In this document: positions 18,151-38,684 of the stretch, piece after piece | Position numbering within the stretch: position 1 is the first letter of the stretch | Layout of the letters: each line of letters opens with the position of its first letter | Assembly: GCA_963840435.1 (NCBI GenBank) | Contig: CAWIYY010000015.1 | Location: 42,105-106,104 of the forward strand | DNA length: 64,000 nt | Direction: 5' to 3' | Origin: an uncultured Acidimicrobiaceae bacterium | GTDB taxonomy: Bacteria; Actinomycetota; Acidimicrobiia; Acidimicrobiales; RAAP-2 | Program-made: the position numbers and the translations under genes | The notes under the pieces: model-generated | Seen by the model: the letters and a program-made list of their open reading frames with translations, nothing else | What the model was told of the DNA's origin: nothing | Databases searched by the model: none

Positions 18151-19089
18151 TCAGTCCTCGAGGCCGTGCAAGGAGAAACCGAGCGCACGCACCTTGGCCA
18201 GTCGTTCGTCGCCGAACTCGTTGCGCATCTGCTCGAGAGTGAACTCCAGCGGGAGCGGGGGGTTCGGGAAGGCCATCAACTCCTCCATCGTGTCCTCCGG
18301 CGCCTCGATCCCGAGAAACTCGACCAATCGGCGGACTTCCTCGCGAGGAGAGCGGCACAGATCGCCATGGTTCACCAGAAGAAACGTCCCCTCAGGCATG
18401 GCTCGCCCCCGTTCGATCGCCAGACTGTTCGAGGCAATCCAGTAGTCCAGCGACCGTACCGGGTTGGCCGACGAACCTCCCTCGATCCCGAACTGAGATC
18501 CCCAACGTGCGACCTGGACCTGGTTGGGGCTGTGCGCCATATAGATCCCGTGGCGGATCACGTGGACGTAGCGCAGCCGGTCCCCGAAGTAGCTGCGAAA
18601 ATGAGGGAGAAAGACGTGGCTGTTTGGCTCCTTCCACCCCCAGAGCGGTGAGTCCTCTCGGACCTGTTCGCGCGAGTGAGCCAGCGTTTCTACTCTGTCT
18701 TCCAGCCACGCGTCGGAGCGGTCGTCCGACAGGTCACCCCGCCTTGCAAAGGCCGAGCAGCGGTGGACCACGGCGGATATGGTCCGCCGATCTTCTCTCG
18801 TAGGCACCAGCAGACCGGTCATTGCCTTCTCGAGTATCGCCAGCGAGTGCCGGATCGGCGTGGCGTCGGGGCCCTCGGGATCAGGATCCCATCTGGGGAG
18901 CTTGCAGAGCAGGGTGAACCATTTGTTGTCCCCGGCTTTGTTCAGATCCGAACCGGTGTACACCTGCAGGCGTCGCATGATCTCGACAACCACTCGCGTG
19001 CCGCTGCCTCCAACGCCGCCAATGACGACGGGGCCTTGCTGTGGCTCGAACCGCGGGGCTGGCTGCGGCCGGCTGAAAACTGGGGTCAC
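18151..19089 (-). CDS. sulfotransferase family protein
   Basis: VVIGGVGGSGTRVVVEIMRRL is a P-loop-like PAPS site. WGWKEPNSHVFLPHF is typical of the Sulfotransfer_3-like group. Confidence 0.7.
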   Translation of the reverse strand: MTPVFSRPQPAPRFEPQQGPVVIGGVGGSGTRVVVEIMRRLQVYTGSDLNKAGDNKWFTLLCKLPRWDPDPEGPDATPIRHSLAILEKAMTGLLVPTREDRRTISAVVHRCSAFARRGDLSDDRSDAWLEDRVETLAHSREQVREDSPLWGWKEPNSHVFLPHFRSYFGDRLRYVHVIRHGIYMAHSPNQVQVARWGSQFGIEGGSSANPVRSLDYWIASNSLAIERGRAMPEGTFLLVNHGDLCRSPREEVRRLVEFLGIEAPEDTMEELMAFPNPPLPLEFTLEQMRNEFGDERLAKVRALGFSLHGLED

Positions 19090-19099
19090 GGAACGCCGA

Positions 19100-21154
19100 C
19101 TAGTCCTGAGGTCTGGCGGAGCCGGCCCCCTGGTGAGCCGAGTCCGCCGGACTCGTCGGATACCAGCGCCGCGTCGATGCGTGGTCAGCCCAGGGAATCG
19201 GATGCCGGCTCGAATCGGCCCGGCGATTCGGGAGGGTAATCACCTCGTCCCAACGCTGCGTGTAGACGGCGTCGAGAGATTGGCTCCGGCGGGCGAAGCT
19301 GTGCCAGCCTGCCGACTGGTGCATTCCATCGCGCTCTGAGCGTTCGACCAGTTCGAGCTTGGTCCGGGTGAACGCCTCCTCCCGATACTGGAAGTGGTGG
19401 ATATTGATCCCTCTCGAGGGTTCGATGAGACGCTCCGACGCGTACGCCGTGTGTGCTCCGTCATTGCTCAAGAGGAACTGGCCGTGCCGATCAAAGCGCT
19501 GCAGAGGATGCTTCCAATGCCCCAGTGAGCAGGGCGGGTTGTTGAGGGGTTCGAAGGTGTAATAGAGCGGTTGAAAGTCGAGCGGATGGAATCGAGGGAC
19601 GTATTCCGGTTTGCGGTCGGGCAGGTGATTCAGGAACGTGGCCCCGACAAGGCGGAACCTGCGGTCCAAGCCTGCCAGGTAGTCCCTGACAGTCGTGCCA
19701 CTCGGACCCTCGGGAAACTCATCGCTGTCGAGCAACATCCACCACACGTGGTCGGCCCCGGAACGCAGTGACTCCCGGGCGACAACCGCATTCACCAGAG
19801 GCTGCACCAACCGTCCGTCGAAGGCCTCCGTTTCGTAGACCTCGGCGATGGTGGCGCCCGCTGCTTCGGCGTTGGCGACGGTGGCATCGCTGCTCGCATT
19901 GTCGACCACGTACACGGCGTCGGCGCCTTGTGTCTGAGCATTGCGGACCGTCGCCTCGATGATGTCCTCGTCCATCCATGACTTGATCACTGCAAAAACG
20001 CGGAAGCCGTCGAGTGGAACCAGAGCCGCCGGGTTGTCCTCGTGCCCCAGGTGGCCTGGCCTGCCTGTCGTGCGCTTTCGGGCAGAGATCGCTCGGCGTG
20101 CAGTTGTCGAGAGAATCTGCAAACGCTCCAGTGCAGGCGGAGACCCGTTTGACGCCGCCGGTTCCGCAGTGTCGCCCTCGGAATCGGCCGACAGCGTCGG
20201 TCCACTCGAAGTCAAGCGCCAGACCGTCTTGGTGGCAGCGAACAGACGGGATCGCTTGATCCACTTCAGTTCGTTCTCGGCCGCGACCCGGGCGAAGACC
20301 ACCATTTCACCGTCCGCCGAGAGCTGAATGAAGTCGTCCACCCAGGACGGTTCGTCGGGAACCGGGGGAGGAGTCCACCGGTTGTGACCACCACGCCGAC
20401 GCACCAGCACTTCCGCAAACGCCCTCTGCTCGGCTACGAGCAGCGGTTCGGCCCCCTCGTCGGAGCGGTGGTGTCGCAGCTCCGGCTCGAAGGCATCCAC
20501 CGCCTGATCAATGCGGTGGTGCGCCGAATGCGCCAGGTCCTGATCCGCCAGGAAGTCACACAACTCGCCGATGGAAGTGCCGGGATCTTGCAGGATGGAC
20601 TGGTAGTCGGCCACGAAGACGGGGAGGCCTTCCACGGCCCTGATCGATTGCTGGACGTAGCGGCGCCACAGCGCCAGTCCGAACGAGATGGGGAAATCGT
20701 TGCGGTGCTCCAGCGACCGCGCGACCTCGAGCGGATCCCGAAGGACCAGGACCGCCACTGGGGGACGATCGAACACCTGGCGCCAGAGCGGCAGGACCAG
20801 ACAGAGCCGCGGGTCCTTCAGCACCATGTGAGCCTCGGTGAATTCCCGCAACGAGAAATCACGCGCGCCGCTCTTGAGCTCTCCCAGCTCGGCGCTCTTG
20901 GAGTCCTCCCATCCGAGAGGTGGGCTCGGTGGCGATGACCAGGTGCCCCCGAGGTATCTGAGGATCCGGTCGTTATAGGTCACGAACCGCCGGCTTTCCC
21001 AGTATCCCCGCTCGTTGTAGGGGCCTGGCGTGATGAGGTCGGTCTCGTCGGGGAGGGCAAATCCGAGCCGAGCGACGGCATTGGCGACGGCCGACGTTCC
21101 GCTTCGGTGCATCCCGATGATGACGACGTGCTGTTGCTCCGACGGCTTCATCAC
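19100..21154 (-). CDS. two-domain protein: N-terminal sulfotransferase plus C-terminal family-2-like glycosyltransferase
   Basis: 684 aa. VVIIGMHRSGTSAVANAVARLG..YNERGYWES is a Stf0-like sulfotransferase. FAVIKSWMDEDIIEATVRN..VYVVDNASSDAT..LLDSDEF is a GT2-like domain with a DxD motif. Confidence 0.7.
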   Translation of the reverse strand: MMKPSEQQHVVIIGMHRSGTSAVANAVARLGFALPDETDLITPGPYNERGYWESRRFVTYNDRILRYLGGTWSSPPSPPLGWEDSKSAELGELKSGARDFSLREFTEAHMVLKDPRLCLVLPLWRQVFDRPPVAVLVLRDPLEVARSLEHRNDFPISFGLALWRRYVQQSIRAVEGLPVFVADYQSILQDPGTSIGELCDFLADQDLAHSAHHRIDQAVDAFEPELRHHRSDEGAEPLLVAEQRAFAEVLVRRRGGHNRWTPPPVPDEPSWVDDFIQLSADGEMVVFARVAAENELKWIKRSRLFAATKTVWRLTSSGPTLSADSEGDTAEPAASNGSPPALERLQILSTTARRAISARKRTTGRPGHLGHEDNPAALVPLDGFRVFAVIKSWMDEDIIEATVRNAQTQGADAVYVVDNASSDATVANAEAAGATIAEVYETEAFDGRLVQPLVNAVVARESLRSGADHVWWMLLDSDEFPEGPSGTTVRDYLAGLDRRFRLVGATFLNHLPDRKPEYVPRFHPLDFQPLYYTFEPLNNPPCSLGHWKHPLQRFDRHGQFLLSNDGAHTAYASERLIEPSRGINIHHFQYREEAFTRTKLELVERSERDGMHQSAGWHSFARRSQSLDAVYTQRWDEVITLPNRRADSSRHPIPWADHASTRRWYPTSPADSAHQGAGSARPQD

Positions 21155-22272
21155 GAGGTGTGGAGCAGCGTCTCGATGATGCGATCCTGATCCGTGGGTG
21201 ACAGAGCTGATCCACTCGGCAGGCAGAGGCCGTCGGCGAAGATGCCCTCGGCGACCGCGCCGCCCAGGACCGTTGCTCCCTTGTAGAGCGGCTGCAGGTG
21301 GAGCGGTTTCCAGACCGGCCGGGATTCGACGTCGATCTGCTCGAGGGCCAATCGGATCTGTTCGCGATCGGCGCCGAAGCGTTCTGGGTCAATGCGGATG
21401 CAGGTCATCCAGTAGTTGGGCACGACCTCGGGGCGAAAGGGCATCATCGCAATGCCGTCGACCTCGTCGAACGCGGCGCGGTAGCGCTCACGTATGGCTT
21501 TTCGTTGTTCGATGCGCCGGTCGAGTCCTCTCAGCTGGCCACGACCCAGTGCCGCGAGCAGGTTGCTCAAGCGGTAGTTGTAGCCCAGGTCGAGGTGCTC
21601 GTAGTGGGCGACAGGTTGTCGGGCCTGGGTGGAGAGGTAGCGGGCCCGTTGGACCAACTGTGGCGAGTTCGACGCCAGCATCCCGCCGCCACTGGTCGTG
21701 ATGATCTTGTTGCCGTTGAACGAGAAGGTGGCGCAGGCGCCGAACCCTCCCGCCGGACGGCCACGGTAGGAGGCGCCCAGCCCTTCAGCGGCGTCTTCGA
21801 CAAGTGGGATCTCGAGGTCCTCACAGGCAGCGGTCAGCACGTCGTAGTCCGGGCAGCCGCCGAGAAGGTCGACAGAGATCACTGCCGCCGGCCGCCGGCC
21901 CAGGCGGGCCCGTTCATAGAGATCGGCCGCCAAGAGGTTGGCGTCGACGTTCCAGTCGGCCGGGTCCGAGTCGACAAAGACGGGTTCTGCCCCGACATAG
22001 CAGGCCGCATTGGCCGTCGCCACGAACGTCAGGGTGGGCACGATCACCTGGTCGCCAGGTTGCACGCCGACCAGGAGGAGGGCCAAATGGAGTGCAGCGG
22101 TGCCACTCGAGAGGGCCGCCGCATCGGTCACACCGACCCGATCGGCCAACTCCCGCTCGAACGCGTCGACATGGGGTCCCAGCGGTGCGATCCAATTCGA
22201 GTCGAAAGCGTCGAGGAGGAGCTCGCGCTCCTCAGAACCGGTGTCGGGAGGTGAGAGAAAGATCCGGGCCAT
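21151..22272 (-). CDS. DegT/DnrJ/EryC1/StrS-family PLP aminotransferase (PglE/WbpE-like sugar aminotransferase)
   Basis: Start set to ATG 22272 (MARIFLSPPDTGSEERELL..SNWIAPLGPHV..FE). The track ORF extends upstream into an Arg/Gly-rich non-homologous stretch that overlaps the next gene. Confidence 0.9.
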   Translation of the reverse strand: MARIFLSPPDTGSEERELLLDAFDSNWIAPLGPHVDAFERELADRVGVTDAAALSSGTAALHLALLLVGVQPGDQVIVPTLTFVATANAACYVGAEPVFVDSDPADWNVDANLLAADLYERARLGRRPAAVISVDLLGGCPDYDVLTAACEDLEIPLVEDAAEGLGASYRGRPAGGFGACATFSFNGNKIITTSGGGMLASNSPQLVQRARYLSTQARQPVAHYEHLDLGYNYRLSNLLAALGRGQLRGLDRRIEQRKAIRERYRAAFDEVDGIAMMPFRPEVVPNYWMTCIRIDPERFGADREQIRLALEQIDVESRPVWKPLHLQPLYKGATVLGGAVAEGIFADGLCLPSGSALSPTDQDRIIETLLHTS

Positions 22273-22274
22273 GT

Positions 22275-23258
22275 TCAAGACGGTCCCGCGCCGGTGGGCT
22301 GCTGAGGTGAGGACATGAACCCAGCCTGGAATCCCACGGCGATGAGTGCCAAAACGCTGACTCCTGTGATCGCCACGGCCGGGACGGTTTTCAAGTCGCT
22401 GGCCACGATGGCCAACCCTGTGAGTATGACGCCCGTCAGGGCATAGGCCCCAACCGCCGCCTTTGTGCTCCAGCCTCGCCGCAGCAGCTGGTCGTATGGG
22501 TGGTCGCGGTCGCCGGCGAGCAGCGAGGTTCCGGCGCGCCACCGGCGAACCACCGCGAAGACCAGTTCGGCGGCCGGAAGAAGGACCAGAGGAAGAGCAC
22601 CGATTCCTACCGGCAACGACTCGCCTGGCGCCCAGCACAGCGCCAGCAGAGCGGCAATCGCCGTTCCGATCAGATAGGAGCCGCCGTCACCGAGGTAGAT
22701 CCTGGCCGGAGGCCAGTTGAAGACCAGGAACGCGGCCATGGCCCCCGCCAGAGCGACCGCGAGATACCGACCGTGGCTGCCGAGGACCACTGCGAATCCC
22801 ACTGCACTGGCCAGGGTGACCGAGCCACAGAGGCCGTCGAGCCCGTCCATGAGATTGAAACCGTTCACGAGCACGACTGTGGCCACGACAATCAGGATGA
22901 AGCTCACGATCCCCGTGAAGCGGGTGGCCAGCATGAGGGCGAGGACCACGGCGGTGAGGAGTTCGGCGGCCAGGCGTGCGGCGGGAGGAAGTGGCCGCAC
23001 ATCGTCGCTCGTGCCAATGGCGAGCGCCATCCCGAGGGGGATGAGCAGCAGGGGCCGGTAGGCGACGGTGCCGACAAGGAGCCCGAGGGCGACTGCGACT
23101 CCACCGAGATAGGGCGTTGCCGAGGCTTGGGGCTTGAGCGGCCCCGGCTGGTCGATCAATTGCACGCGCCTGGCCACTCGCCACGCCAGGGGGGTGGCCA
23201 CCAACGTGACCGCGCAGGCGCCAATCCCCACCGCGACGGTGTCTGTCAAGGAGGGCAT
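22275..23258 (-). CDS. polyprenyl-phosphate N-acetylhexosamine-1-phosphate transferase (MraY/WecA/WbpL superfamily)
   Basis: 327 aa and polytopic. IDQPGPLKPQASATPYLGG and NGFNLMDGLDGL are signature motifs. Confidence 0.85.
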   Translation of the reverse strand: MPSLTDTVAVGIGACAVTLVATPLAWRVARRVQLIDQPGPLKPQASATPYLGGVAVALGLLVGTVAYRPLLLIPLGMALAIGTSDDVRPLPPAARLAAELLTAVVLALMLATRFTGIVSFILIVVATVVLVNGFNLMDGLDGLCGSVTLASAVGFAVVLGSHGRYLAVALAGAMAAFLVFNWPPARIYLGDGGSYLIGTAIAALLALCWAPGESLPVGIGALPLVLLPAAELVFAVVRRWRAGTSLLAGDRDHPYDQLLRRGWSTKAAVGAYALTGVILTGLAIVASDLKTVPAVAITGVSVLALIAVGFQAGFMSSPQQPTGAGPS

Positions 23259-23914
23259 ATGGCTGAGATGTCGGCTCGCAGGAGCAGCGATTCGGTTCCC
23301 GGGTGCAACTCGAAACGCTCCGCTTCGACGAAGCCCGCCTCGAGGTAGACCCTGATCGCCGTCTCGTTCGTCGCCGCCACCACCACACGGGCCGTGCTCG
23401 AACCCGCCTCAGCCGCCGCGGCATGGAAGGAACGGACGAGCTGCGCACCGGCGCCTCGCCGTCGAGCCGTGGCCGCCACGGCGAGCGAGAGCAACTCCGT
23501 CTCGGATCTCTCCACGTGCTCACCCATTCCCTTCGGCTGCTTCGGGTCGTCCTTTGCCCCATAGCGCAAGGTTTCGACGACCCGGGGGATCGAGCGCACG
23601 AGGCGCGGGGCCGAGGTCATCCCGGCGACCAAGCCGTCGCGGAGGAGGAAATCGCCATAGAGGCGGCGCACCGAAGTGGCACCGGCGACAAACCCGATCA
23701 CGATCCCGGGTCCTGGATCGCAGGCCACCAGGAGAAAGCCGTGCGGGGACTTGGCGATCCGGGCGTAGAGCCGGCGGAGGAAGCGGGGCCCCAGCGAGGC
23801 AAGGAATCCCTCAGTGATCGCCCTGACATGGAGGTCCGCCACGCTGCCTGCGTCCTGCGACGTGGCGGCCCTCACGACGACCTCGCTCGGGGGTTCCCCG
23901 TTGCCACCTGACAT
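23246..23914 (-). CDS. GNAT-family N-acetyltransferase
   Basis: Start set to ATG 23914. LAVAATARRRGAGAQLV is the Q/RxxGxG/A acetyl-CoA motif. First gene of the minus-strand operon 23914 to 18151. Confidence 0.7.
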   Translation of the reverse strand: MSGGNGEPPSEVVVRAATSQDAGSVADLHVRAITEGFLASLGPRFLRRLYARIAKSPHGFLLVACDPGPGIVIGFVAGATSVRRLYGDFLLRDGLVAGMTSAPRLVRSIPRVVETLRYGAKDDPKQPKGMGEHVERSETELLSLAVAATARRRGAGAQLVRSFHAAAAEAGSSTARVVVAATNETAIRVYLEAGFVEAERFELHPGTESLLLRADISAICPP

Positions 23915-24117
23915 TGGACCCTCGACCCCGATGAGATTGCCGGACCGGATCACGTTAGCCTCCGAGTGCCGGCGTCCCGGCGGCGGCAATCCCGCTGTTC
24001 ACCTGGCCCTTTCCTTCCTTTAGCTGTTCGCTCGATCCCCCGGCTCCGGCGCCAGAGACCCGGTTCGGCCGGACCGGAGGGGTGTTGCGCCCGCCCGCAG
24101 CGCCATTCCAAACGCAA

Positions 24118-24135
24118 GGTGAACGTGAGGTGAAC
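24118..24135 (-). promoter_or_regulatory. PHO-box-like operator: two GTTCACC cores exactly 11 nt apart
   Basis: The plus strand reads GGTGAACgtgaGGTGAAC. The reverse complement is GTTCACCtcacGTTCACC. It sits in the divergent region between the GNAT operon and the Ig-repeat gene and is followed by AT-rich TAAATATTAAAT. Confidence 0.5.
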
Positions 24136-24325
24136 TAAATATTAAATGTTGATGATCTGGTGACAATCTGCCGATAGACCCTATGCATCGGCGGTGACGC
24201 CGACCCATAGTTGCGTGTAGGCGGGCTGGCAAACCCAATTCCGTCTTGGCGATAAGGCATTTCCACTTATTGGGGGAACGCGGCACTCGAAGGTGCCGTT
24301 TCCGGGACCACGGAGGCAAATAGGT

Positions 24326-26125
24326 ATGGCGAGAAGATTCGGTGCAGTACCTCTGCGGCTGGCGATCGGATCAGTAGTGGCCTTGTCGGGCCTCGCGCTG
24401 CTGGCAGCACCCGCGTCGGCAACCCCAGGAGTGACCACCACGACTGTGACGGAGTCGGCAGGAGCGGTGACTGGCTCTCCGGTCACGTTCACGGCGACGG
24501 TGACCAAGGGGGCGATGGTCCCGACCGGGACAGTGACCTTCACGGTCACGGGCAAGGACTCAGCGCCCTTCACATGCGATGGTGGGAACATCGCAAACCT
24601 GGGGCCCAATGGGAGCGGTCCCGGCTCGGTGGCCACGTGCGCCTTCAGTGGCGGTCTCCAGGCGAGTGATTCGCCCTACACGGTCGATGCGAGTTACAGC
24701 GGAGGCGGAACGCTCGGCCCGAGCAACGGTTCGCTCAGTCCCGCCACGATCACCCGGGGCTCGACGAGTACGGGCCTCCTTTCGTCGTCAAATCCGACGG
24801 TAACCGGTCAATCGGTCACCTTCACGGCGACGGTGGACCCGACGAGCCCATCGACCGGGTCCCCGAGCGGGTCGGTCACCTTTGCCATCGACGGAACGGG
24901 CGGCGGCAACGTGGTTTGCGACACGACCGGCGACGTGGTGCCCCTCAGCGGCGGCACGGCCTCGTGCGCCATTTCTGCGGGCCTATCTGCACAGTTCAGC
25001 CCGTACTCGGTGAGCGCTGCCTACTCCGGTGACACGAACTTCAAGCCGAGCACCGGCACGCTGTCCCAGACGGTGTCAAAGGCTGCCGTGACCCTCGGAC
25101 TGACGAGTTCGGTCGCACAGCCCGACACGGGGCAACCGATCAGCTTCACTGCGAGCGTCACTTCGGCGACTCCTCCGGGGTCCGGCAATCCAACTGGCAA
25201 CATCGTCTTCACGGTCATGGGGAACAACGTGTTGCCGGGTCAGCCCGGCTACACGGAGACCTGTGCCGGGGGTGACACGCAGCCGCTCTCAGGTGGCAGC
25301 GCCACGTGCAACTTCCCGACCGGACTGATCTCGAATCCGATCACCTTCACGGTGACGGCAACGCTCAAAGACGCAAACTTCTCGTCCTCCTCGGCTTCGC
25401 TCGTGCAGGACGTGAACAAGGCGCCAACGACGACGAGCATTAGCGGCGTGCCGGGCTCCATCGTTGCGTCGCAGCCATTCACCTTCACGGTCACCATCCA
25501 GACCAACGCTCCTGGTGGGAACCCGCCGACCGGCAACCTCGAATGGGCCGTGTGCGTGCACAACGCGCCCACGTGCTCGGGTCTGCCGGGTGGGACCTTC
25601 ACCCTGGGGAAGGCGACGAAGAAGGACATTGCGAACAATGAGCGGGTCCTCACCTACTCGGTTCCAGGCGTCTTGAGGCCCGGCTTCTACACCATCAACG
25701 CCAACTTCTCGGGTGACTCGGACTACACGCAAAGCAGTTCGGCAACCGGATTCATCCTGGTGAACAAGGCGCCGACGAGCATGCAGATCGTGCTTCAGCG
25801 CAACCCCTTGAAGCAGGGGAGCACCCCGGTCATCCGGGCCGCCGTGATCCCCAGCGCGGAGGCCAGCACGGGCCTAGGCGCCCCTCAGGGCACCGTCACC
25901 TTCACGATCACCGGTGCATCGGGCGACACGGTCAACTGTGAAGGGGGTTCGAACGTGATCACGATCAGCACCACCTCGTCGAACCAGGGCAAGGGGACGT
26001 GCACCATTGCGCCAGCCGACGTCACGGTCGCCGACAGCCCCTACGTGGTCGGGGTGCAGTACTCGGGCGACAGCAACTACGAACCCATAAGCGGCACCCA
26101 GATGGTCCACATCGTCAACCCGTAA
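24326..26125 (+). CDS. secreted protein made of about six bacterial Ig-like repeats
   Basis: ATG 24326 after GGAGG. Signal peptide ends LLAAPASA. Recurrent ~95-aa units carry VTFTATV / VTFTVTG / ITFTVTA / VTFTITG and C..G....C...L......Y.V.A.Y.GD.N patterns. Confidence 0.7.
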   Translation: MARRFGAVPLRLAIGSVVALSGLALLAAPASATPGVTTTTVTESAGAVTGSPVTFTATVTKGAMVPTGTVTFTVTGKDSAPFTCDGGNIANLGPNGSGPGSVATCAFSGGLQASDSPYTVDASYSGGGTLGPSNGSLSPATITRGSTSTGLLSSSNPTVTGQSVTFTATVDPTSPSTGSPSGSVTFAIDGTGGGNVVCDTTGDVVPLSGGTASCAISAGLSAQFSPYSVSAAYSGDTNFKPSTGTLSQTVSKAAVTLGLTSSVAQPDTGQPISFTASVTSATPPGSGNPTGNIVFTVMGNNVLPGQPGYTETCAGGDTQPLSGGSATCNFPTGLISNPITFTVTATLKDANFSSSSASLVQDVNKAPTTTSISGVPGSIVASQPFTFTVTIQTNAPGGNPPTGNLEWAVCVHNAPTCSGLPGGTFTLGKATKKDIANNERVLTYSVPGVLRPGFYTINANFSGDSDYTQSSSATGFILVNKAPTSMQIVLQRNPLKQGSTPVIRAAVIPSAEASTGLGAPQGTVTFTITGASGDTVNCEGGSNVITISTTSSNQGKGTCTIAPADVTVADSPYVVGVQYSGDSNYEPISGTQMVHIVNP

Positions 26126-26136
26126 ATGGTCAATAC

Positions 26137-26172
26137 CATGTAATTGGCATGTAATTACATGGAAACATGTAT
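26137..26172. promoter_or_regulatory. AT-rich motif cluster CATGTAATT-gg-CATGTAATTACATG-gaaa-CATGTAT
   Basis: Perfect 14-bp palindrome CATGTAATTACATG at 26148-26161, flanked by two further CATGTA(A/T)T copies. It lies in a ~90-nt low-GC island upstream of pstC. Confidence 0.5.
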
Positions 26173-26217
26173 TTAGTAGGTAACCTAAAGTTTACTGCAA
26201 CGACAGATTCCGGTAAC

Positions 26218-26281
26218 TCACGGCCGTTAGCGTGATCGGGTGCTCGAGCCAGAGTCCACCCAGATCACCTAACGGCCGTGA
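26218..26281 (+). promoter_or_regulatory. long imperfect hairpin that includes the pstC start codon
   Basis: TCACGGCCGTTAGcGTGATCGGGTG (26218-26242) pairs with CACCCaGATCACCTAACGGCCGTGA (26257-26281). The GTG start at 26278 lies in the 3' arm. Confidence 0.5.
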
Positions 26282-27267
26282 CTACTGAAACCCTGGTTCG
26301 CCCCAACACCGAGGCCCCGCGTCCCATCGTCATTCCGAACGATCGGTCGACCGAGGACAAGATCTTCCGAGGGGTGGCCCGAGCGGCAGGGTTCACTGTC
26401 TTCGCCATCCTCTTCCTCATCGGGTTCTTCCTGCTTCTTCGAGGGCTCCCGGCACTGCGGGCAGTGGGGTGGAAGTACTTCACGACGTCGGGCTACAGCA
26501 CTCTCCACAAGCCGTACCACTACGGGGCGGCTGCCCAGATGTTCGGGACCGTCTTGATCGCCCTTATCGCGGTGATCGTCGGTGTGCCTGTCGCCATCGG
26601 GACGGCGTTGTTCCTGACCGAGTACGCACCCCTCCGGGCCCGCCGAGCGCTGATCGCGATGGTCGACCTGGGCGCAGCCGTCCCCAGCATCATCTTCGGG
26701 CTCTGGGCGCTCCATGTGTTCCAACCTCAGATCACGGGGTCGACGACTTGGATCGTGCACCACTTGTCTTTCATCCCGATCTTCAAGGCGTCGACGCCGC
26801 CCTTCAACGGCTCCTTCTTCATTGCAGGTCTGATCGTCGGCATGATGATCGTGCCGATCGTGGCGTCGGTCTCCCGTGAGGTGTTCAGTCTCGCTCCACC
26901 CGGCGAACGGGAGGGAGCGCTGGCGCTGGGGGCAACTCGCTCCCAGATGATCAGGACGGTTGTCCTGCCCTTCGGGCGCGGGGGCATGATCGGCGCCTCC
27001 ATGCTCGGACTGGGACGGGCTCTCGGCGAGACGATCGCGGTCTACGTGATCTTGGGTCTCGACTTCACGATCTCACCGCATATCATGGAACACGGCGGCA
27101 CGTCGGTGGCGTCCTTCATCGCCGCAGAGTTCGGTGCAGGTGGGAAACTGGGTACGGCGGATCTGCTGATGCTGGGCTTCGTCCTCTTTACGTTCACTCT
27201 GATCGTCAACCTCGTGGCATCCATGATCGTCAACCGTTCTCGCAGCGGAAAGGGCGTCGACCTGTGA
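26278..27267 (+). CDS. pstC: phosphate ABC transporter permease PstC
   Basis: 329 aa, six-TM pattern, FLTEYAP and EAS/EGALALGAT permease loop. Followed by pstA and pstB with overlapping junctions. Confidence 0.9.
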   Translation: MTTETLVRPNTEAPRPIVIPNDRSTEDKIFRGVARAAGFTVFAILFLIGFFLLLRGLPALRAVGWKYFTTSGYSTLHKPYHYGAAAQMFGTVLIALIAVIVGVPVAIGTALFLTEYAPLRARRALIAMVDLGAAVPSIIFGLWALHVFQPQITGSTTWIVHHLSFIPIFKASTPPFNGSFFIAGLIVGMMIVPIVASVSREVFSLAPPGEREGALALGATRSQMIRTVVLPFGRGGMIGASMLGLGRALGETIAVYVILGLDFTISPHIMEHGGTSVASFIAAEFGAGGKLGTADLLMLGFVLFTFTLIVNLVASMIVNRSRSGKGVDL

Positions 27268-28433
27268 GCCTGACCGTCACCAATGGGGCCGCACCCGGGG
27301 ACCAGGTCACGCTGGCGACCAACGGCTCTCGCGGGATCGTCTCGCCGCCCCGCCGCACCCGTGACTTCGGCGCCAAAGGTCTGGCGCTCCTGGCCGCGTC
27401 CATCCTGTCCTCGTTCGCGGTCGTGTGGATCTTCTTCTACGAGCTCACGCTCCTTTCGGGCGCGTTCGGTTTCATCCTGTGCTGGTACGCCTGCTTCCTC
27501 GTCGTCTATTGGCTCGTGACGAACCTGAGCATCGACCGGGCCGCGGCCACCGACCGGGTCCTCACCGCAGTGGTTGCCTCGTGTGCTGCCCTGATCATCG
27601 GTCTACTCGGGTACATCATCGGCTGGGTCTTCGTGCGTGGTGTCGCGCATTTCACGGTCGGTTTTCTCTACCGCTCCATGCGCTACTACCAGCCCGCTGA
27701 TCCGCACCTCTTCAGCGACGTGGGCGTGAGCCAGGCGATCATCGGAACCCTCGAGCAGGTCGGCTTGGCTGCACTCATGGCAGTACCACTCGCCTTCTTG
27801 ACGGCCATCTTCCTCAATGAGGTCGGGGGGTGGGGCACCAGGTTCGTGCGGACAATCGTTACTGCGATGAGTGGCGTTCCATCCGTCGTGGCGGGTGTGT
27901 TCATCTACGCCGTTTTCATCGTGCCCCATGTGCTCGGCTATTCCGGCTTCGCCGCGTCGATGGCGCTCTTCGTCTTGATGCTGCCCTCCATCACGCGGAC
28001 CACTGAAGAGGTGCTGCGGGTGGTGCCCGGGGGGCTGCGCGAGGCCTCGTTGGCTCTCGGTGCGTCGGAGTGGCGCACCGTCCGCCAGGTGGTCCTGCCC
28101 ACCGCCCGCTCGGGACTCATCACCGCCGTTGTCCTGGGGATCGCCATCGCCGCCGGAGAGACGGCACCGCTGATCTTCACGGCGTTCGGGAACAGCAATC
28201 TGAACTACGACCCATTCCACGGGCCTCAGGCCGCGCTGCCCCTGGTGCTCTACGAGGACATCGCGACCGCGCAGCCGGCAGTAGTGCAGTTGGCGTTCAC
28301 GGCAGGGTTCGTCCTGCTGAGCCTCGTCCTCATCCTCTTCGTCATTGCGCGGCTGTTCGGCCGGCGGTCGACCCGTAAGGGTCGGGTTCGCCACGCCTTA
28401 GCCGCGCCCATCCGCTGGGTCAGGAGCATCTGA
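27264..28433 (+). CDS. pstA: phosphate ABC transporter permease PstA (long N-terminal extension)
   Basis: 389 aa. [21 protein letters not shown] is the PstA EAA loop. GTGA overlap with pstC. Confidence 0.9.
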
Positions 28434-29275
28434 TGGACACGTTCACCGATATCCGCCCGTCGTCTGATGCGGAACATCCGATCGTCGCTCCGGTCGGCCA
28501 ATCCGCTCAGCTCCAGGCACACGGGGTCTGCGCCTGGTTCAGCGGTCGTCTGGTGCTCGAGTCGGTCACGCTCAACATGGAGCGTTCACGGGTGACGGCC
28601 CTGATCGGCCCGTCAGGCTGTGGCAAATCGACCTTCCTCCGCATCCTCAACCGGATGCACGAGCTGGTGCCGGGGGCCCAGCTGGCCGGACGGGTCGAGC
28701 TCGACGGGGTGGACGTCTACGGCGGAGGTTTGCGGGCCACCGAGGCCCGCAAACAGATCGGCATGGTGTTCCAGAAGCCGAACCCGTTCCCGGCAATGAC
28801 GATCGAGGAGAACGTGCTCTCCGGCCTCAAGTTCAATCGGACAAAGCTGTCGTCGGCCGGCAAGCGGCTCGTGGTCGAGGAGATGCTGACCAAGGCCGGC
28901 TTGTGGAACGAAGTCAAGGATCGGCTGAACGAGCTGGGCGGCGGTCTCTCGGGCGGTCAGCAACAGCGGCTGTGTATCGCTCGCGCCCTTGCCGTACGCC
29001 CTCGGGTCCTCCTCATGGACGAACCCTGCTCCGCTCTGGACCCGACGTCGACCAACCGAATTGAGGAGACCATCCGAGAGATCGCCGATGAGGTCACGGT
29101 CGTGATCGTGACGCACAACATGCAGCAGGCTCAGCGGGTCTCGCACACGTGCGCATTCTTTCTGGCGGCGGAGGGCCAGCCGGGGCGGGTCATCGAATCC
29201 GGAGACACCGAGATGATGTTCGGAAACCCCTCCGATCCTCGAACCAGCGACTACGTCAACGGGAGGTTCGGATGA
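28433..29275 (+). CDS. pstB: phosphate ABC transporter ATP-binding protein PstB
   Basis: GPSGCGKST Walker [13 protein letters not shown] (PstB-specific), [20 protein letters not shown]. Confidence 0.95.
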
Positions 29276-30945
29276 GGCGTGTCGTCAGGTTCTCATGCCT
29301 CCTGGCCGCGCTGACCTTCGCGGCTTCGATCGCCTCGTTCGGCCTGAGCAGCCTGGGGTCCGGTTCAGCTGGTGCGGCGTATCCCCTGCTGACATCAACG
29401 GGGTCGAGTTTCGCCGGCGTCGCCATTTCAGAATGGCAGGGGCAGTTCAACGAGCTCGATGCCGGCAACATCAACTTCACCGTCACGTCCTCCGTCGTCG
29501 GCATGAACGACTTCTGCCAGAACACGGTCAACTTTGGCGCGACCGACATCGCCTACAGCACGAATCAGTCGAACTGCACGACGAGCCAGGTTCCCTACCC
29601 GTTCCAGTACATGCCCGACGTCGCCGGCGGACTGGCCTTCGAATACAACCTCACCGGGCAGAACGGCGAGGCGGTCAACAACCTGATTCTGAACGCAACG
29701 TTGCTCGAAGGGATCTTCACCGGTGCCATCACGAACTGGGACGATCCTTCCATCGCTGCGCTGAACCCCGACGTTCGCTTGCCGAACGAGGCCATCACGG
29801 CCTTCTACCGGGGAGACCCTTCCGGTGAGAACTACCTCCTCAGCGACTACTTCCTGCACACGAATCCGGGACCGATCACTGCGTTCCAGCAGTTGGCCGG
29901 AGTGCCCTCGACGCCAGGTCAGCCCTCGGCGACCTGGGCGGCCTTCCCCAACGGCAAGCCGACCAGCCTGCAGGGCCTGGTCAGTGTCGGCTCGGCAGAC
30001 AGCGCGGCGCAGGGCCCGAAGCAGACGCAAGGCGGCATCTCCTACGTCGAGACCGCCTATGCAAAGCAGGCTGACTTACCCGTGGCCTCGGTCGTCAACC
30101 AAGCCGGGTATGCCGTCCAGCCTGCGTCCTACAACGTCGCCGTCGCCCTGACCGGCGCCATCTTGTACCAGGACCTCACCCAGAACCTGGCCGGGGTCTA
30201 CACGAACCCGAATCCCAACGCCTATCCCATCTCGGCATACAGCTATTTCATCGCCCAGTGCGTGCCGTCCCAGGCGGCGACTCAGAACTTCGCTTGCGAC
30301 AGCTCAGGAAACGTCACACAGGTCACATCACAAGGTCAGGAGATGGCCGCATTCATCACCTTCGTGGCCTGCCTCGGCCAGGCGAATATGGCAAAACTTG
30401 GGTATTCGCCGATACCACCGAACCTGGTGGAAGACGATTTCCAGGCGGCGGGCCGGCTTGAGGGCGGGGTAGAACCACCGGCACCCACGCCGCAGAACTG
30501 CGACAACCCGTACATCACGGGGGCACTCCAACCGGTGGGTCAACCGACGGTGGTGGGGTCGGCCAATCCGGGATCGGCAGGGGCTGCATCAACCGCTGCC
30601 ACCACCGCTGCCGCCACGGCCGCCGCGGCAGCCGCGGCCCAGCACGCCCAAAACGGTGGGTTGAACGCGCCGCAGAGCGTCACGGGTTCTGGTGCGTCGG
30701 CGACCGCCACGGCCGGTGGTCCATCCAAAGCCACGAAGAAGAAAGCAGTGAACGCGCTGACCGACCCTGCCCTGGCCTACGACCGCCAGGACGGTTTGAT
30801 CGGCGCCGCCAACAGTGGGCTGGACAGCTGGTCGCCCACTGTCGTGGCTCTGTGGTCGCTGATCTTCGCCGTCTTCCTCGTGGGGGTGCCGTTGAGCGTG
30901 TGGTTCTGGCAACGAAGGCGAAAAGACTCGGGAGGCATGACGTGA
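29272..30945 (+). CDS. pstS: PstS-type phosphate-binding protein with Ala-rich linker and C-terminal transmembrane anchor
   Basis: ATG 29272 overlaps the pstB stop. Colinear with E. coli PstS: [59 protein letters not shown]. The C-terminus [32 protein letters not shown] is a TM helix plus a basic tail. Confidence 0.75.
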
Positions 30946-33662
30946 GAACGACACGGATCCGCGTTGCGGTCCGGCTAGCCGTCGCGTTCGCCATCGGTGC
31001 GGTGTGCCTACTGGCGTTCGCTCCAGGCCACACCAACGCCTCGGCTTCGAGTGTCGGAAGTGCAGAAACGGTGCTCCCTCACGCCTCCGCCTCGTGCCCT
31101 CCCGAGGCCAACTCGTGTGTGCAGATGCCGTTCGACGCTACGAATCCCAATGTCGCCACCATCTGCCCGGCTGGCTGCACGCTGACGGCAGGACCGGTCA
31201 GTGCGCTCGGGCAGGGACAGTCGGTCTATGTCGACGTGTCGGGTCTCGCGACCGGTGAGGAAGTCGCGCTTGCCATGTGCACCCTGCCGACAGGGACCAC
31301 GCCCGTGGCGCAACCACAATGCGCGTCGTATCTACCGGCGGGGCCGAGTTGTACCGAGAACTGCTCCGGGACGCCCAGCCCCCTCGAGTGGCAATACGAC
31401 ACCGCAGCATCGGCCGACACCGTCATGTCGATCGGGACCCAATACGACCCGAACGTCTCCGGCCAGACGCCCATTACCTCGCAGACATCCACCCAATACC
31501 AGTCGGGAGATCCGAATGCCTTCGGGTCTTTCTTCTGCGACAACGGGCCGGCCAATCCGTGCGGAATTGAGGTCATGGATCTCGGCCCCAACACGCAGGA
31601 CGTGGTGGGTGACGGTTTCCCGCCCCGTGTCGCCTTCAATTCCACGACCGCCAACACCGTCGTGATCCCGCTCAACTGGGCCGCCACCGGCTCGGGGTGC
31701 GGATCGGCGCCCATCATGCAGGTGGATGCCTCGTACAGCGCGGCCCAGTTCCTGCCTGCCGCCGGAGAGGCGACCTGCAATGGCACGGACGGTGTCGCCG
31801 TGCTGCCGACAAGCGTTCCATCGGTCGACGATCCCACGTGCACGTCCGGAACGGGCTCGTGTCCGATCGGGGACGTGATCAGTGGGAACACAGCAGCGTC
31901 GTTCACGGACGACCCGAACGACCCGGCCACACTGGCCGAGCTTCAGGCCGCCGGAGGGAAGTTCGCCTACATCCCGATCGCGGTCTCGGCGACAGAGATC
32001 GCGTTCGAGGGCGAGGCGGGTCAGAACGGATCTGGTGGCTCGATCTATCCCCTGAGCAATTACAACCTGACCCCGGCGCAGACTGCCGGCATCATGACGC
32101 AGCAGTGGACGTCCCCGATAGCGCAGCCCGGCTCGCCCGAGGACGATATCTGTGGACAGTTGGGTGCGACGGCTCCGTGCACAGAGACGCCGAACATAAC
32201 GCAGTCCCCACAGACTGTGTATGAAGTCAACGGCCAATCCGCCAACGTCGACGTCGAGGGCGTGGACGGCGGGGTACCCACGCCGGCCACATTCCCGTTC
32301 CTGAGTTATACCGGCACCTACGGCGATGGGTCGTTCAAGAGTCCACTGAAGAACTATCCGCAACTCACCGGCTACGCGCTGCTCAATCCGTGGCCAGGCG
32401 ACACCGGCCTCAGCACGGAATCGGTGACAGAATCAAACCTCGACGCGATGTTTCCGTCCACCGCGAGCGGCGCCTCCTATGAGACCTCGGGTTGGATCTG
32501 TGGCGCACCGGACAAGTCCTATTCGGTCACGCTTCCCGGCGGGACGCAGGCGACGGTGAGTGATCTCGAGAGCGGTCCGCAGCTCTTGGCGAACGGCGAG
32601 CAGGATCCGATCGAAATGACCCAAGTCGACGGTGTGTGGACGCTCAACCCCAGCGTGACCGAGAACTTTCAAGCGAATCCGAGCGGCTGCGAAGCGCTGT
32701 CCAGCCTCCCCACGGACTTCGCGCCACAGACGTCGGCCGGTGGTGGGATCACCACCTATGCGCCTTCGAGCCAGCCCCTGACGGCGGCGCACGCCATCTC
32801 GGGAAATGCCAGCAAGGGGCTCTTGGGGTTTGCCTTCACCGCTATGGACAGTTCGGAGGCGGACTTCTATGGCCTCCTCCCTGCCAACCTGCAGAACGCC
32901 TCGGGAGCTTTCGTTGCCCCGTCAGCACCGGCCATCACGGCGGCTCTGAACGATGCGACCCCGGCGAAGAACGGCACACTGATCCCGAGCTTCACCAACG
33001 CAACGGACGCGGCTGCCTATCCAATGCCGATGGTCACCTACGCGCTGATCTCGACCAGTCCGCAACCAAGCACTGCTCAGGCCGCTCAGCTCACCGACAT
33101 GCTGACCAACCTGGTGAAGTACTCCAATACAGGCGGTGCCGGTACCAGCGAGCCACTGCCTCCGGGTTACGTCCCGCTCCCGACCAACCTCTACCAGCAG
33201 GCGCTGGGGGAGATTGCCAGCGATGTCATCGCCCCCGACGGTCAGCCCGTTGGCGGCGAGGCCGCAGCGCCGCCACTGCATTCCGCATCTGGCTCCGCTC
33301 CCGGCGCGTCGACCTTGCCCGACGATTCATCGAGCGAGTTCTCGCCTGATTCGTTCGGTGGCGAACTCGGGGCACCTTTCGGCCTGGCCGTCGAGAAGGC
33401 GGCTGGGAACAGTCCGGCAAAAGACTCCTCAGGTTCCCCGTCCGGCGGCGGGGGCTTGAACCCGATCGGGCGCTTCATCGCCGTGACACTGGGTGACAAC
33501 CGGTTCCTGGTTCCCGGTCTACTTCTGTTGGCCCTGATCTGTCTGGTCGCTGGACCGCTGCTTTACATGTCTCCATCGCTACGGAAAAAACCGGCTACTG
33601 CCACGGATGGGGGTGTGGACGGCGTGGGCGGCGAGGGTGACGGCCCGCCGCCCGTGGAGTGA
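30942..33662 (+). CDS. large (906 aa) surface protein with PstS/PBP-like segments and a C-terminal transmembrane anchor
   Basis: GTG 30942 overlaps the upstream stop (GTGA). Signal peptide. AGGKFAYIPIAVSATEIAF and AAAYPMPMVTYALIS...PPGYVPLP resemble PstS-fold segments. C-terminal FLVPGLLLLALICLVAGPLLYM followed by LRKK. Confidence 0.6.
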   Translation: MRTTRIRVAVRLAVAFAIGAVCLLAFAPGHTNASASSVGSAETVLPHASASCPPEANSCVQMPFDATNPNVATICPAGCTLTAGPVSALGQGQSVYVDVSGLATGEEVALAMCTLPTGTTPVAQPQCASYLPAGPSCTENCSGTPSPLEWQYDTAASADTVMSIGTQYDPNVSGQTPITSQTSTQYQSGDPNAFGSFFCDNGPANPCGIEVMDLGPNTQDVVGDGFPPRVAFNSTTANTVVIPLNWAATGSGCGSAPIMQVDASYSAAQFLPAAGEATCNGTDGVAVLPTSVPSVDDPTCTSGTGSCPIGDVISGNTAASFTDDPNDPATLAELQAAGGKFAYIPIAVSATEIAFEGEAGQNGSGGSIYPLSNYNLTPAQTAGIMTQQWTSPIAQPGSPEDDICGQLGATAPCTETPNITQSPQTVYEVNGQSANVDVEGVDGGVPTPATFPFLSYTGTYGDGSFKSPLKNYPQLTGYALLNPWPGDTGLSTESVTESNLDAMFPSTASGASYETSGWICGAPDKSYSVTLPGGTQATVSDLESGPQLLANGEQDPIEMTQVDGVWTLNPSVTENFQANPSGCEALSSLPTDFAPQTSAGGGITTYAPSSQPLTAAHAISGNASKGLLGFAFTAMDSSEADFYGLLPANLQNASGAFVAPSAPAITAALNDATPAKNGTLIPSFTNATDAAAYPMPMVTYALISTSPQPSTAQAAQLTDMLTNLVKYSNTGGAGTSEPLPPGYVPLPTNLYQQALGEIASDVIAPDGQPVGGEAAAPPLHSASGSAPGASTLPDDSSSEFSPDSFGGELGAPFGLAVEKAAGNSPAKDSSGSPSGGGGLNPIGRFIAVTLGDNRFLVPGLLLLALICLVAGPLLYMSPSLRKKPATATDGGVDGVGGEGDGPPPVE

Positions 33663-34696
33663 TGGACATCGCTACCTCGGCGCACGACGCCGATCAACTG
33701 TCCGTCTCGACCCAGGAGGGAAGCCCCGAGCCCGACGTGGGGACCCCCGAGTCGCCTGAGAGCGGCGGGAACGGGGTGTCGGGACCGGACAGCTCCGCTA
33801 CTGCACCACCTGGTGTCGGCGAGTCGTCCCGGGCCCTCCTGGCCGCTCTTGGACGCGCCCTCGCGGTGTTGTCCCGACCACGGGTGGCCGGAGTCCTGAT
33901 CGGCGGACTGGGCGTCCTCATTCTGCTATTGCTCGGCTACATCTACGTGTTCACGCCGCTGAGTGCCGCTCGGTCGCAGCACTCGTTGTTGCAACAGATC
34001 CAAGCCCAGCCGGCTCAGACCTATCAACTGGCCGAGGGCAAGGCGCCACCGGAGGGCAGCCCTCTGGGCGTGCTCGAGATCCCGGCGCTCCATCTGGACC
34101 AAGCGATGGTGCAGGGAACCGACTCTCAGGATTTGCAGAAGGGTCCCGGACACATGCCGACCTCGTCGCTCCCCGGTCAACGGGGCAATGCGGTGATCGC
34201 CGGACGCCGTGCCACCTACGGGGCGCCGTTCGGATCTATCGGTTCGCTTCGCAGGGGCCAGATGATCAAAGTGATCGACGGTCTTGGCACGTTCCACTAC
34301 AGGGTCACGAGCGTGATCTACGTGCAGGGTGGCGCCCACGACGTCGTGACCCAGTCGGCCAACAATCGTCTCACGCTTGTCACTGCCGGGTCGGGTTTCT
34401 GGCCACAGGGCCGGCTCGCCGTCATCGCATCGCTCCAGGGAAAGCCCTTCCCTCATCTGAGCGCGACCCACTTTGCGGCACCGACATCGGAACTGGGACT
34501 CTCTGGCGATGCGGCTTCGGGATTGCTCTTCGTTCTGTGGAGCCTGTTGTTTCTTATGATTCTTTCGGTGTCGGTCTGGCTCCTGCGCCGCTGGTCACAA
34601 CCGGTCGTGGTGCTGCTCCTGTCCGTGCCCGTGCTCCTGCTTGTTGCCATTTTCGCCTGTGAGAGCTTCGTCGGTGCCTTGCCGGCAACGGTCTGA
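33659..34696 (+). CDS. class-E-sortase-like membrane protein lacking the catalytic His and Cys (pseudo-sortase)
   Basis: LEIPALHLDQAMVQGTDSQDLQKGPGHMPTSSLPGQRGNAVIAGRRATYGAPF...NNRLTLVTAGSGF...GRLAVIASL is colinear with SrtE-type sortases. AGHR is replaced by AGRR (R183, nt 34205-34207) and TLxTC by TLVTA (A243, nt 34385-34387). Confidence 0.75.
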   Translation: MMDIATSAHDADQLSVSTQEGSPEPDVGTPESPESGGNGVSGPDSSATAPPGVGESSRALLAALGRALAVLSRPRVAGVLIGGLGVLILLLLGYIYVFTPLSAARSQHSLLQQIQAQPAQTYQLAEGKAPPEGSPLGVLEIPALHLDQAMVQGTDSQDLQKGPGHMPTSSLPGQRGNAVIAGRRATYGAPFGSIGSLRRGQMIKVIDGLGTFHYRVTSVIYVQGGAHDVVTQSANNRLTLVTAGSGFWPQGRLAVIASLQGKPFPHLSATHFAAPTSELGLSGDAASGLLFVLWSLLFLMILSVSVWLLRRWSQPVVVLLLSVPVLLLVAIFACESFVGALPATV

Positions 34697-34703
34697 GGCG
34701 ATC

Positions 34704-35228: not shown

Positions 35229-35610
35229 TTGTTCTGCGGGAGCTGAAGTTCGCGCACCGTTTACCTCTGACTCATACGGTGTCCCCGTAGGCAGGAGCAC
35301 GAGGATAGTGACACCTGCAGTGCAAGTGCCCAGACGATGGGCGCTGGAGCTGCACTTTTGCGCCGCGACTTGGCCAAAAGCCAAACGGACGCATGGGGTA
35401 AGGAAGTGATCACCAATAGTTCTTCGCCCCGGTGTCGGGAATTCGCGGAACGTTTACGTTGCAACCGTAACGTGCACCACGGCGATGGGTCCCGAACGCC
35501 TCCGCACTTCGCAGATGCTGGACGGATCCTGTCCCCAGGGACCAAGCGCCACCAACCGGTGTCGGAATGCCGGTACGGAGATGAACCAACCAAAAGGAGA
35601 CCCAACCAAA

Positions 35611-38467: not shown

Positions 38468-38684
38468 ACCGGCCCGCGGACTAGGCCACCCACCTGGGGC
38501 TCTATAGTTCACCTACCTGTTACGCCGCTGTTGCGGGTGGTTCATCTGTTCCACCTAGTCTCGGCGGCTGACATGCGGCCGGTTGCAACCATGAGTCGGC
38601 CGCCCATCGGGGCCGTGTACCCCGGATCGTCCGGCGAACGCAACGTCGCCGAAGGGACGAAACCGGGCGGAGGGCAGTCACAGC

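Follow-up and report, generated by a model that had tools for sequence, protein, structure and literature searches.

Which of two divergent gene clusters is served by a pair of regulatory repeats that lies between them? The question is raised by a locus of an uncultured Acidimicrobiaceae bacterium, of which we analyzed 64,000 nucleotides (nt) (GenBank assembly GCA_963840435.1, contig CAWIYY010000015.1, positions 42,105 to 106,104; called the window here, with coordinates counted from its first nucleotide). Two copies of GTTCACC, the core of the PHO operators bound by PhoP in Streptomyces, stand on the minus strand at 24118 to 24135, between a leftward glycan operon that starts with a gene for a GNAT acetyltransferase and a rightward gene for a secreted protein with immunoglobulin (Ig)-like repeats. 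A first-pass annotation placed this pair (site A) in front of the leftward operon, which encodes a sulfotransferase, and proposed that it drives a sulfate-for-phosphate switch of the cell envelope. It overlooked that the Ig gene is the head of a pst cluster and that pstC carries a separate PHO array. Our favored explanation, in which we have moderate confidence, is that site A forms the high-affinity core of an operator of the Pho regulon, located in the promoter region of the Ig gene, which heads a conserved phosphate-capture island. An envelope switch driven by site A is unsupported, since the comparative evidence assigns the repeats to the Ig/pst side.

Site A and the array of repeats around it

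Site A reads GGTGAACgtgaGGTGAAC on the plus strand and GTTCACCtcacGTTCACCttgc on the minus strand, where it takes the form GTTCACC-N4-GTTCACC (GTTCACCtcacGTTCACC), i.e., two perfect cores 11 nt apart. Reading the sequence confirmed the pair of GGTGAAC that had been reported at 24118 to 24124 and 24129 to 24135 and also the surroundings described for it: the ATG of the GNAT gene at 23916 is 202 nt away (about 205 nt had been given), that of the Ig gene at 24326 is 191 nt away (about 190 nt), and pstC at 26278 is 2.1 kb away (about 2 kb). An AT-rich segment, TAAATATTAAAT, abuts the pair at 24136 to 24147 on the plus strand. Within the window, the 18-nt pattern has a single occurrence, and no match to it arose in any of 100 dinucleotide-preserving shuffles (0/100). 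The single 7-mer GTTCACC was found 22 times, versus 8.9 expected. When the window was scanned with weighted two-unit models at 11-nt spacing, site A scored 25 and the runner-up scored 22.

In Streptomyces, the PhoP operator is built of 11-nt direct repeat units with a 7-nt core, GTTCACC, and the consensus G G/T TCAYYYR G/C G; a PHO box has at least two consecutive units without gaps, with G1 and T2 in both, and its outer units are without A2 and C1 (PMC2275107). The two perfect cores of site A agree with this consensus, and its units, GTTCACCTCAC and GTTCACCTTGC, are adjacent and have G1 and T2 in both.

Scanning species-representative genomes with PstC yielded 11 Acidimicrobiaceae/Acidimicrobiales loci (PstC 78 to 93% identical) and one distant Frankiaceae locus (L012); where single loci matter below, they are given by such L numbers. 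The closest relatives of the window, which has ~66% G+C, are metagenome-assembled Acidimicrobiaceae genomes. We judged the conservation of the repeats from an alignment of nine intergenic regions and from a scan for units in register. By this evidence, the reported pair forms units 1 and 2 of an extended candidate operator of five 11-nt units in phase, on the minus strand from 24103 to 24157. From 24157 down to 24103, the units read GATCATCaaca, TTTAATAttta, GTTCACCtcac, GTTCACCttgc, and GTTTGGAatgg. A related unit pair stands at the equivalent position and on the same strand in eight further loci from related genomes (nine loci with the window). Pairwise identity within the array is 0.57 to 0.65, and the 22 nt from 24136 to 24157 are free of gaps; in L010 and L005, strong GTTCAC units occupy the array's flanking positions. 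Because the pair is unique in the window, absent from the shuffles, and kept in eight further loci, site A is far beyond what chance would give.

The array keeps its distance to the Ig gene and not to the glycan operon

In the nine-locus alignment, conservation of the intergenic region peaks at CATAGT (plus strand, 24206 to 24211), the putative −10 element of the Ig-gene promoter; its ATAGT is invariant in the nine loci. In seven loci, the two best units of the array lie exactly 70 and 81 nt from CATAGT, and in L010 (36/58/69) and L005 (36/47/69/80) the units are displaced by 1 nt but otherwise in register. The sequence between the array and CATAGT is conserved as well, with a pairwise identity of 0.53 to 0.82 versus 0.24 in the spacer on the GNAT side.

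On that side, the conserved landmark is a −10-like hexamer, TAACGT (minus strand, 23952 to 23957), which lies ~36 nt upstream of the GNAT ATG and appears as TAWCGT in 9/9 loci. Read as 23957 to 23952, it is the putative −10 element of the GNAT promoter. The stretch from TAWCGT to the ATG is non-coding, because it is conserved with frame-breaking indels. The distance from the array to TAWCGT ranges from 110 to 191 nt across the loci, and the DNA in between has 24% pairwise identity and many indels. In L005, a gene for a 452-amino-acid (aa) beta-helix lipoprotein (6447 to 7805) sits between the GNAT gene and the array. The array there remains by the Ig gene, at a distance of 1.3 kb from the GNAT operon, whose −10-like element adjoins the start codon of the beta-helix gene. 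(The homolog of that gene in the window, at 48385 to 49968, is 42% identical and 24 kb away.) A beta-helix gene likewise lies between the GNAT and Ig genes in L008, L011, and L013 (2211 to 3926 in L013). On the minus strand, no TAnnnT was found at a 5-nt gap after any array unit in any locus. As controls only, we took distant modules from a metagenome scan with DegT (relatives 55 to 65% identical, with the same gene order and a GT4 ~50% identical); these GNAT-like/GT4/DegT modules, which are not beside Ig/pst genes, have no strong repeat pair upstream. The fixed spacing to the Ig gene, the variable spacing to the GNAT gene, the gene order of L005, the lack of a minus-strand −10 element, and the bare distant modules together tie the array to the Ig/pst side. 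The placement of site A in front of the sulfotransferase operon is thus unsupported, and site A does not hold a constrained position in a glycopolymer-operon promoter.

A second, weaker site, the single perfect unit GTTCACCtggc (site B; plus strand, 23997 to 24007), lies 39 nt from the GNAT −10-like element. It faces away from the GNAT gene and is inverted relative to unit 2 of site A. A unit 39 to 41 nt from the −10-like element is present in 5/9 loci (the window, L002, L003, L004, and L009), with a second unit at 51 to 52 nt in L002 to L004 and a single unit in the window.

These results bear most directly on the strongest alternative, that the array is an activating operator of the GNAT-GT4-DegT-sulfotransferase operon, alone or bidirectionally with the Ig gene, and induces a phosphate-free sulfated glycan. 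The array units do face the GNAT operon, as units face their genes at the promoters of pstC and of the 616-aa protein gene described below, and the glycan operon and the Ig-pst cluster are divergent in 11/11 related loci and immediate neighbors in most of them. The operon encodes a sulfotransferase, at least three more are encoded in the window, and the PHO-like unit near the GNAT −10-like element recurs in five loci. There are precedents, too, in PhoP of Streptomyces coelicolor and its phosphate-free wall polymers (PMC3479208) and, as summarized in PMC4415409, in the switch from teichoic to teichuronic acid in Bacillus. Set against this are the variable distance across unconserved DNA, the minus strand without TAnnnT in every locus, the L005 array standing behind another gene, and the distant modules without upstream repeats, and it is from domain matches that a sulfated, phosphate-free, or anionic glycan is predicted. 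We therefore consider it unlikely that the array activates the glycan operon.

The same motif at other places in the island

Directly upstream of pstC, at 26179 to 26233 on the plus strand, is a PHO array that reads GGTAACCtaaa GTTTACTgcaa cgacagattcc GGTAACTcacg, its units covering 26179 to 26222 and being followed after 5 nt by the −10-like hexamer TAGCGT (26228 to 26233). This design, with its fixed distance to TAnnnT, was found in 12/12 loci compared, in 8 by a strict pattern and in 4 by eye. Two gene-facing pairs on the plus strand precede the gene for a 616-aa secreted protein (35611 to 37461). The farther one, GTTCGCGcacc GTTTACCtctg, 5 nt, TACGGT, occupies 35248 to 35280, and its pair (35248 to 35269) is conserved in all related loci; the nearer one, ATTCGCGgaac GTTTACGttgc, 5 nt, TAACGT, emerged at 35441 to 35473 from a composite scan of the window. 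A four-unit array, GTTCACCtacc TGTTACGccgc TGTTGCGggtg GTTCATCtgtt, 5 nt, TAGTCT, lies at 38507 to 38561 (plus strand), upstream of a gene for a membrane protein with a GH18 domain according to Pfam (38685 to 40466). The related loci end short of this last region; from the promoter architecture that the GH18 gene shares with pstC, the Pho island may reach at least 40.4 kb. All four gene-facing arrays (26179, 35248, 35441, and 38507) have one geometry: the last unit, 5 nt, and TAnnnT. Intergenic DNA makes up only 12% of the window, yet it contains 15 of the 26 best repeat pairs found there, including all of the top six.

Because the motif recurs before pstC, the 616-aa protein gene, and the GH18 gene, each time facing the gene and followed by 5 nt and TAnnnT, the assignment to a Pho-type operator is well supported. 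It is quite probable, to judge from the sequence, that site A is an operator of a phosphate-starvation response regulator, which is predicted to bind there. The earlier suggestion of a minimal Streptomyces PHO operator agrees with the sequence rules, with the conserved footprint, and with the recurrence of the motif at promoters of phosphate-scavenging genes, including pstC in all 12 loci.

The motif was also met at places with other surroundings. In L012, a metagenome-assembled Frankiaceae genome, GTTCATGctgcGTTCACC (8703 to 8724) lies upstream of pstS in a conventional pstS-pstCAB operon; this locus puts the motif in a third actinobacterial order. The second PHO-like site that the first-pass annotation had reported at 6576 is indeed present, with three 11-nt units in phase (GTTCACTtccg CGTCACTcgcc GGTCACGcatt; plus strand, 6576 to 6608), upstream of a gene for a secreted beta-helix protein (6796 to 8220). 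Further intergenic PHO-like pairs are at 11711 to 11732, in the divergent region before a gene for a PglF/CapD-like dehydratase, and at 52502 to 52523, between a GT1 gene and icd. The window scan found no TAnnnT at the usual distance at 6576 to 6608, 11711 to 11732, or 52502 to 52523.

Just upstream of the pstC array, at 26137 to 26174, is an AT-rich run of CATGTAATT-like repeats, two copies of which are 11 nt apart; it includes the palindrome CATGTAATTACATG at 26148 to 26161. The run is kept in L002 to L004, L006, and L009, and it may represent extra weak units or the site of another regulator. Its folding is no better than that of shuffled sequence (z = −1.5).

A proposed phosphate-capture island headed by the Ig gene

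The proposed phosphate-capture island consists of the Ig protein, pstCAB, membrane-anchored PstS-like proteins, and a sortase. The predicted binder of site A is an OmpR/PhoB-family phosphate-starvation regulator, equivalent to PhoP of Streptomyces. At low phosphate, the phosphorylated regulator would occupy units 1 and 2, would spread cooperatively onto the weaker flanking units, and would activate the Ig gene from about −60 to −115 of a start predicted a few nucleotides past CATAGT. The Ig transcript would then read through into pstCAB, boosted by the usual type of PHO promoter that pstC has of its own, and the downstream genes for secreted proteins and the GH18 protein would be switched on by arrays of their own. 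If the leftward glycan operon is affected at all, the effect would be secondary and would more likely be exerted through site B. What was observed is a conserved motif, in phase and at fixed spacing; which regulator acts, with what sign, and where transcripts start is inference.

Several points weigh against this explanation. No good −35 element accompanies CATAGT, which in close relatives is one half of an imperfect palindrome. Whereas the four gene-facing arrays of the island are oriented toward their genes, the units of this array face away from the Ig gene, and the array is unusually far upstream of the putative −10 element. The usual activating geometry, in which units on the coding strand reach the −35 region and the last unit is followed by 5 nt and TAnnnT, is not that of site A. 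Because pstC has its own PHO promoter, the upstream site A is not required for pst induction. Among the open reading frames (ORFs) scanned in the window, none showed a response-regulator domain, and the host is uncultured and known only from metagenomes.

The kind of element is known, and as far as can be told its occurrence in Acidimicrobiia is new, as are the away-facing upstream array and the atypical pst cluster; a full-text literature search on Acidimicrobiia with sulfotransferase and phosphate returned nothing relevant. GTTCACC-type Pho operators, so far described in Streptomyces and a small number of other cultured actinobacteria, would now extend to uncultured soil Acidimicrobiaceae, with a map of a phosphate-starvation island that has at least four usual PHO promoters, one away-facing upstream array, and an atypical pst cluster. 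The locus also illustrates that a divergent intergenic site can suggest a plausible story of an envelope switch and that conservation of spacing, together with variants of gene order, can show to which side the site belongs.

Beyond the proposed activation of the Ig gene, site A could possibly exert control in both directions or repress the glycan operon. A broader idea, which we regard as doubtful, is that the conserved divergent pairing is functional and that one Pho-type regulator acts at low phosphate through sites A and B to coordinate the phosphate-capture apparatus with glycan remodeling by the diamino-sugar/sulfotransferase operon, i.e., that a Gram-positive lineage might make a sulfate-for-phosphate switch. 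If bidirectional control were true, it would be a first hint of sulfated glycans replacing phosphate polymers in Actinomycetota.

Other explanations for the array

The array might instead be a repressor site that lies over the start of a leftward sigma-70-like promoter of the glycan operon and shuts the operon off at low phosphate, as phosphorylated PhoP (PhoP~P) does at tagA and tagD of Bacillus. A promoter scan of the region gave TTGTCA (24166 to 24161), a 16-nt spacer, and TAATAT (24144 to 24139), with 0.2 such matches expected by chance. The predicted start, at ~24132, falls within unit 1, and the position is therefore fit for repression; furthermore, the operon has a TagO/WecA-type GT4 gene at its beginning, and PhoP represses teichoic acid genes in Bacillus, according to the summary in PMC4415409. 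TAATAT, however, is found only in the closest relatives and is lost in L006, L007, L009, L010, and L005, in which the repeat units persist. Nor is a promoter 215 nt upstream of the GNAT gene necessary, because that gene has its separately conserved −10-like element ~36 nt from the ATG. Because its −10 element is unconserved beyond close relatives, the leftward promoter is kept as a weak rival only, and repression from the array appears improbable.

We give about as little credence to the idea that the repeats are bound by an OmpR-family regulator other than a phosphate sensor, such as a relative of GlnR, AfsQ1, MtrA, or PolR, whose 11-nt repeats are similar. Several units in the island read GGTAACC or TGTAACC and thus resemble what we take to be the GTnAC motif, which counts in its favor. 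Actinobacterial regulators are known to share or compete for such sites, as GlnR and PhoP do (PMC3561978), and PolR of Microlunatus binds GTTCACnnnnnGTTCaC (PMC6754071). Against this stands the concentration of the motif before pstC and the neighboring genes for secreted and binding proteins, conserved in 12 loci; because of this clustering, a phosphate regulator is the simplest reading.

That the pair is a chance repeat or a functionless remnant of a repeat element is suggested by the overall excess of the 7-mer in the window and by its presence inside terminator-like hairpins between tandem Ig genes in L008, L011, and L013, but this is effectively refuted by the comparative data, with no shuffle in 100 yielding the pair and with its position, phase, and strand kept in nine diverged loci beside an unconserved GNAT-side flank.

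Comparison with known systems

Site A resembles the PHO boxes of S. coelicolor (Sola-Landa et al. 2008, PMC2275107) in its 11-nt GTTCACC units, at least two of them adjacent, and in the presence of the motif before pst genes. Its strong core flanked by weaker extension units recalls the "class III" complex operators of the same species. It differs in that its host belongs to the class Acidimicrobiia, is without a characterized regulator, and is known from sequence alone, and in that site A lies ~60 to 115 nt upstream of the nearest predicted promoter, from which it faces away, without overlapping a −35 element.

PhoP of S. coelicolor activates SCO4873-4881 and SCO6021-6025, which have divergent promoter regions and presumably make a phosphate-free wall polymer at low phosphate (Allenby et al. 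2012, PMC3479208). As there, the PHO operator of the window is in a divergent region beside genes for glycosyltransferases and sugar-modifying enzymes. For the S. coelicolor clusters, however, PhoP binding and phoP-dependent expression were measured, whereas the operator of the window is tied by sequence comparison to the other side. The gene contents differ as well: the window has sulfotransferases and a diamino-sugar module, and the S. coelicolor clusters have NeuAB-type genes.

In Bacillus subtilis, PhoP represses tagAB and tagDEF and activates tuaA-H (Liu et al. 1998, as cited in PMC4415409). Insofar as that summary goes, it too places a Pho regulator at a divergent promoter region of wall glycopolymer genes and gives a precedent for both activation and repression. 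Motif and phylum differ from those of the window, in which no teichoic or teichuronic acid genes were identified. The PhoP repeats of Bacillus are of the TTAACA type.

In Microlunatus phosphovorus, another actinobacterium outside Streptomyces, an identical repeat, GTTCACnnnnnGTTCaC, precedes phosphate-transport genes; it is found at pit, pstS, ppk, and ppgk (PMC6754071). Experiments attributed those sites to the DevR-like regulator PolR, and PhoP was suggested to share them (PMC6754071).

As in a canonical pstSCAB operon, PstC and PstA score above the NCBIfam equivalog cutoffs, and a PHO array lies directly upstream. Unlike in that operon, the order is C-A-B-S after an Ig-repeat gene, and PstB and PstS fall below the curated cutoffs. 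The PstS-like protein of 557 aa carries a C-terminal membrane anchor instead of a lipobox, and downstream of its gene come those for the 936-aa protein with a PstS-like segment, a sortase, and a lipoprotein.

Genes on either side of site A

The Ig gene (plus strand, 24326 to 26125) encodes a protein with a signal peptide and four stretches that match Pfam Big_3_5 (E = 2.9e-34). It precedes pstC in all related loci, and no terminator-like site was found between it and pstC. This gene order and the absence of a terminator-like structure before pstC make the Ig gene the first gene of an atypical pst cluster. The genes that follow on the plus strand are pstC (26278 to 27267; NCBIfam TIGR02138, 244 bits, above the cutoff of 196), pstA (27264 to 28433; TIGR00974, 225 bits, above the cutoff of 193), pstB (28433 to 29275; best match PstB, 320 bits, below the cutoff of 343), and the gene for the 557-aa PstS-like protein (29272 to 30945; best match PstS, 167 bits, below the cutoff of 205), which has a signal peptide and a C-terminal membrane anchor and in which no lipobox was found. 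Next come the gene for the 936-aa protein (30852 to 33662), which has a PstS-like C-terminal segment and its own C-terminal anchor, as read from translation and synteny; the sortase gene (33659 to 34696; Pfam Sortase); and, as read from their translations, genes for a small lipoprotein (34704 to 35228) and for the 616-aa secreted protein. No obvious LPXTG motif was seen in the proteins of the cluster (26278 to 37461), which is conserved in 11 related loci.

The leftward glycan operon (minus strand, 18151 to 23916) has five genes, assigned by Pfam: the GNAT acetyltransferase (23246 to 23916), a GT4 priming transferase of the WecA/TagO type (22275 to 23258), a DegT aminotransferase (21151 to 22371), a 684-aa protein with a GT2 domain and a weakly sulfotransferase-like N terminus (19100 to 21154; Sulfotransfer_1, E = 0.0015, below the cutoff), and a sulfotransferase (18151 to 19089; Sulfotransfer_3, E = 2.6e-10). 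Gene order is kept across the related loci, with DegT, GT4, and GNAT on one strand and Ig, PstCAB, the PstS-like protein, the 936-aa protein, and the sortase on the opposite strand. At least four genes in the window have sulfotransferase domains (among 316 to 1158, 1212 to 2657, 18151 to 19089, 19100 to 21154, and 45826 to 46686), plus one that is below threshold; in 1212 to 2657, the domain is fused to a formyltransferase. These genes belong to a ~45-kb glycan island, an insertion that separates purH/folD/metF from icd/mdh.

Exact-protein lookups gave no match for the GT4 protein or for a UDP-glucose dehydrogenase, and PstB matched only on one 1.4-kb JGI contig. Searches of PDB sequences with the Ig protein and the 616-aa protein gave no match. 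The 616-aa protein was considered as a third PstS, and neither BLASTP against the two PstS-like proteins nor a Pfam scan supported this.

The leader of the Ig gene (24212 to 24325) is conserved, with AGGCGG...GGCGA, a CGGCAC...GTGCCG hairpin, and UUCCGGGACCACGGAGGCAA. Its hairpins are small, with almost no covariation and no Rfam match, and we do not claim it as an RNA element; an Rfam search over 23000 to 27000 gave one subthreshold chance match only.

Tandem Ig-like paralogs lie upstream of pstC in L008, L011, and L013, and four were read in L013. Behind most of them are inverted repeats (GGGGGTGAACGCAGG...CCTGCGTTCACCCCC), two of which are followed by a T-run, and their stems hold an inverted PHO core. 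These terminator-like repeats are at 5670 to 5715, 7165 to 7225, and 8510 to 8565 in L013, at 5475 to 5515 in L008, and at 7165 to 7210 in L011. Some PHO-like matches between the tandem Ig genes of these loci had been candidate operators; they proved to be GC-rich hairpins, two with a T-run, and because they look like terminators, they were excluded from the operator count.

Antisense ORFs had been called from the G+C content at third codon positions (GC3) in the Thr/Ser/Gly-rich stretch from 34817 to 37082. These calls were rejected, as the genes there are those on the plus strand at 34704 to 35228 and 35611 to 37461, and automated gene calls need care in regions of such composition.

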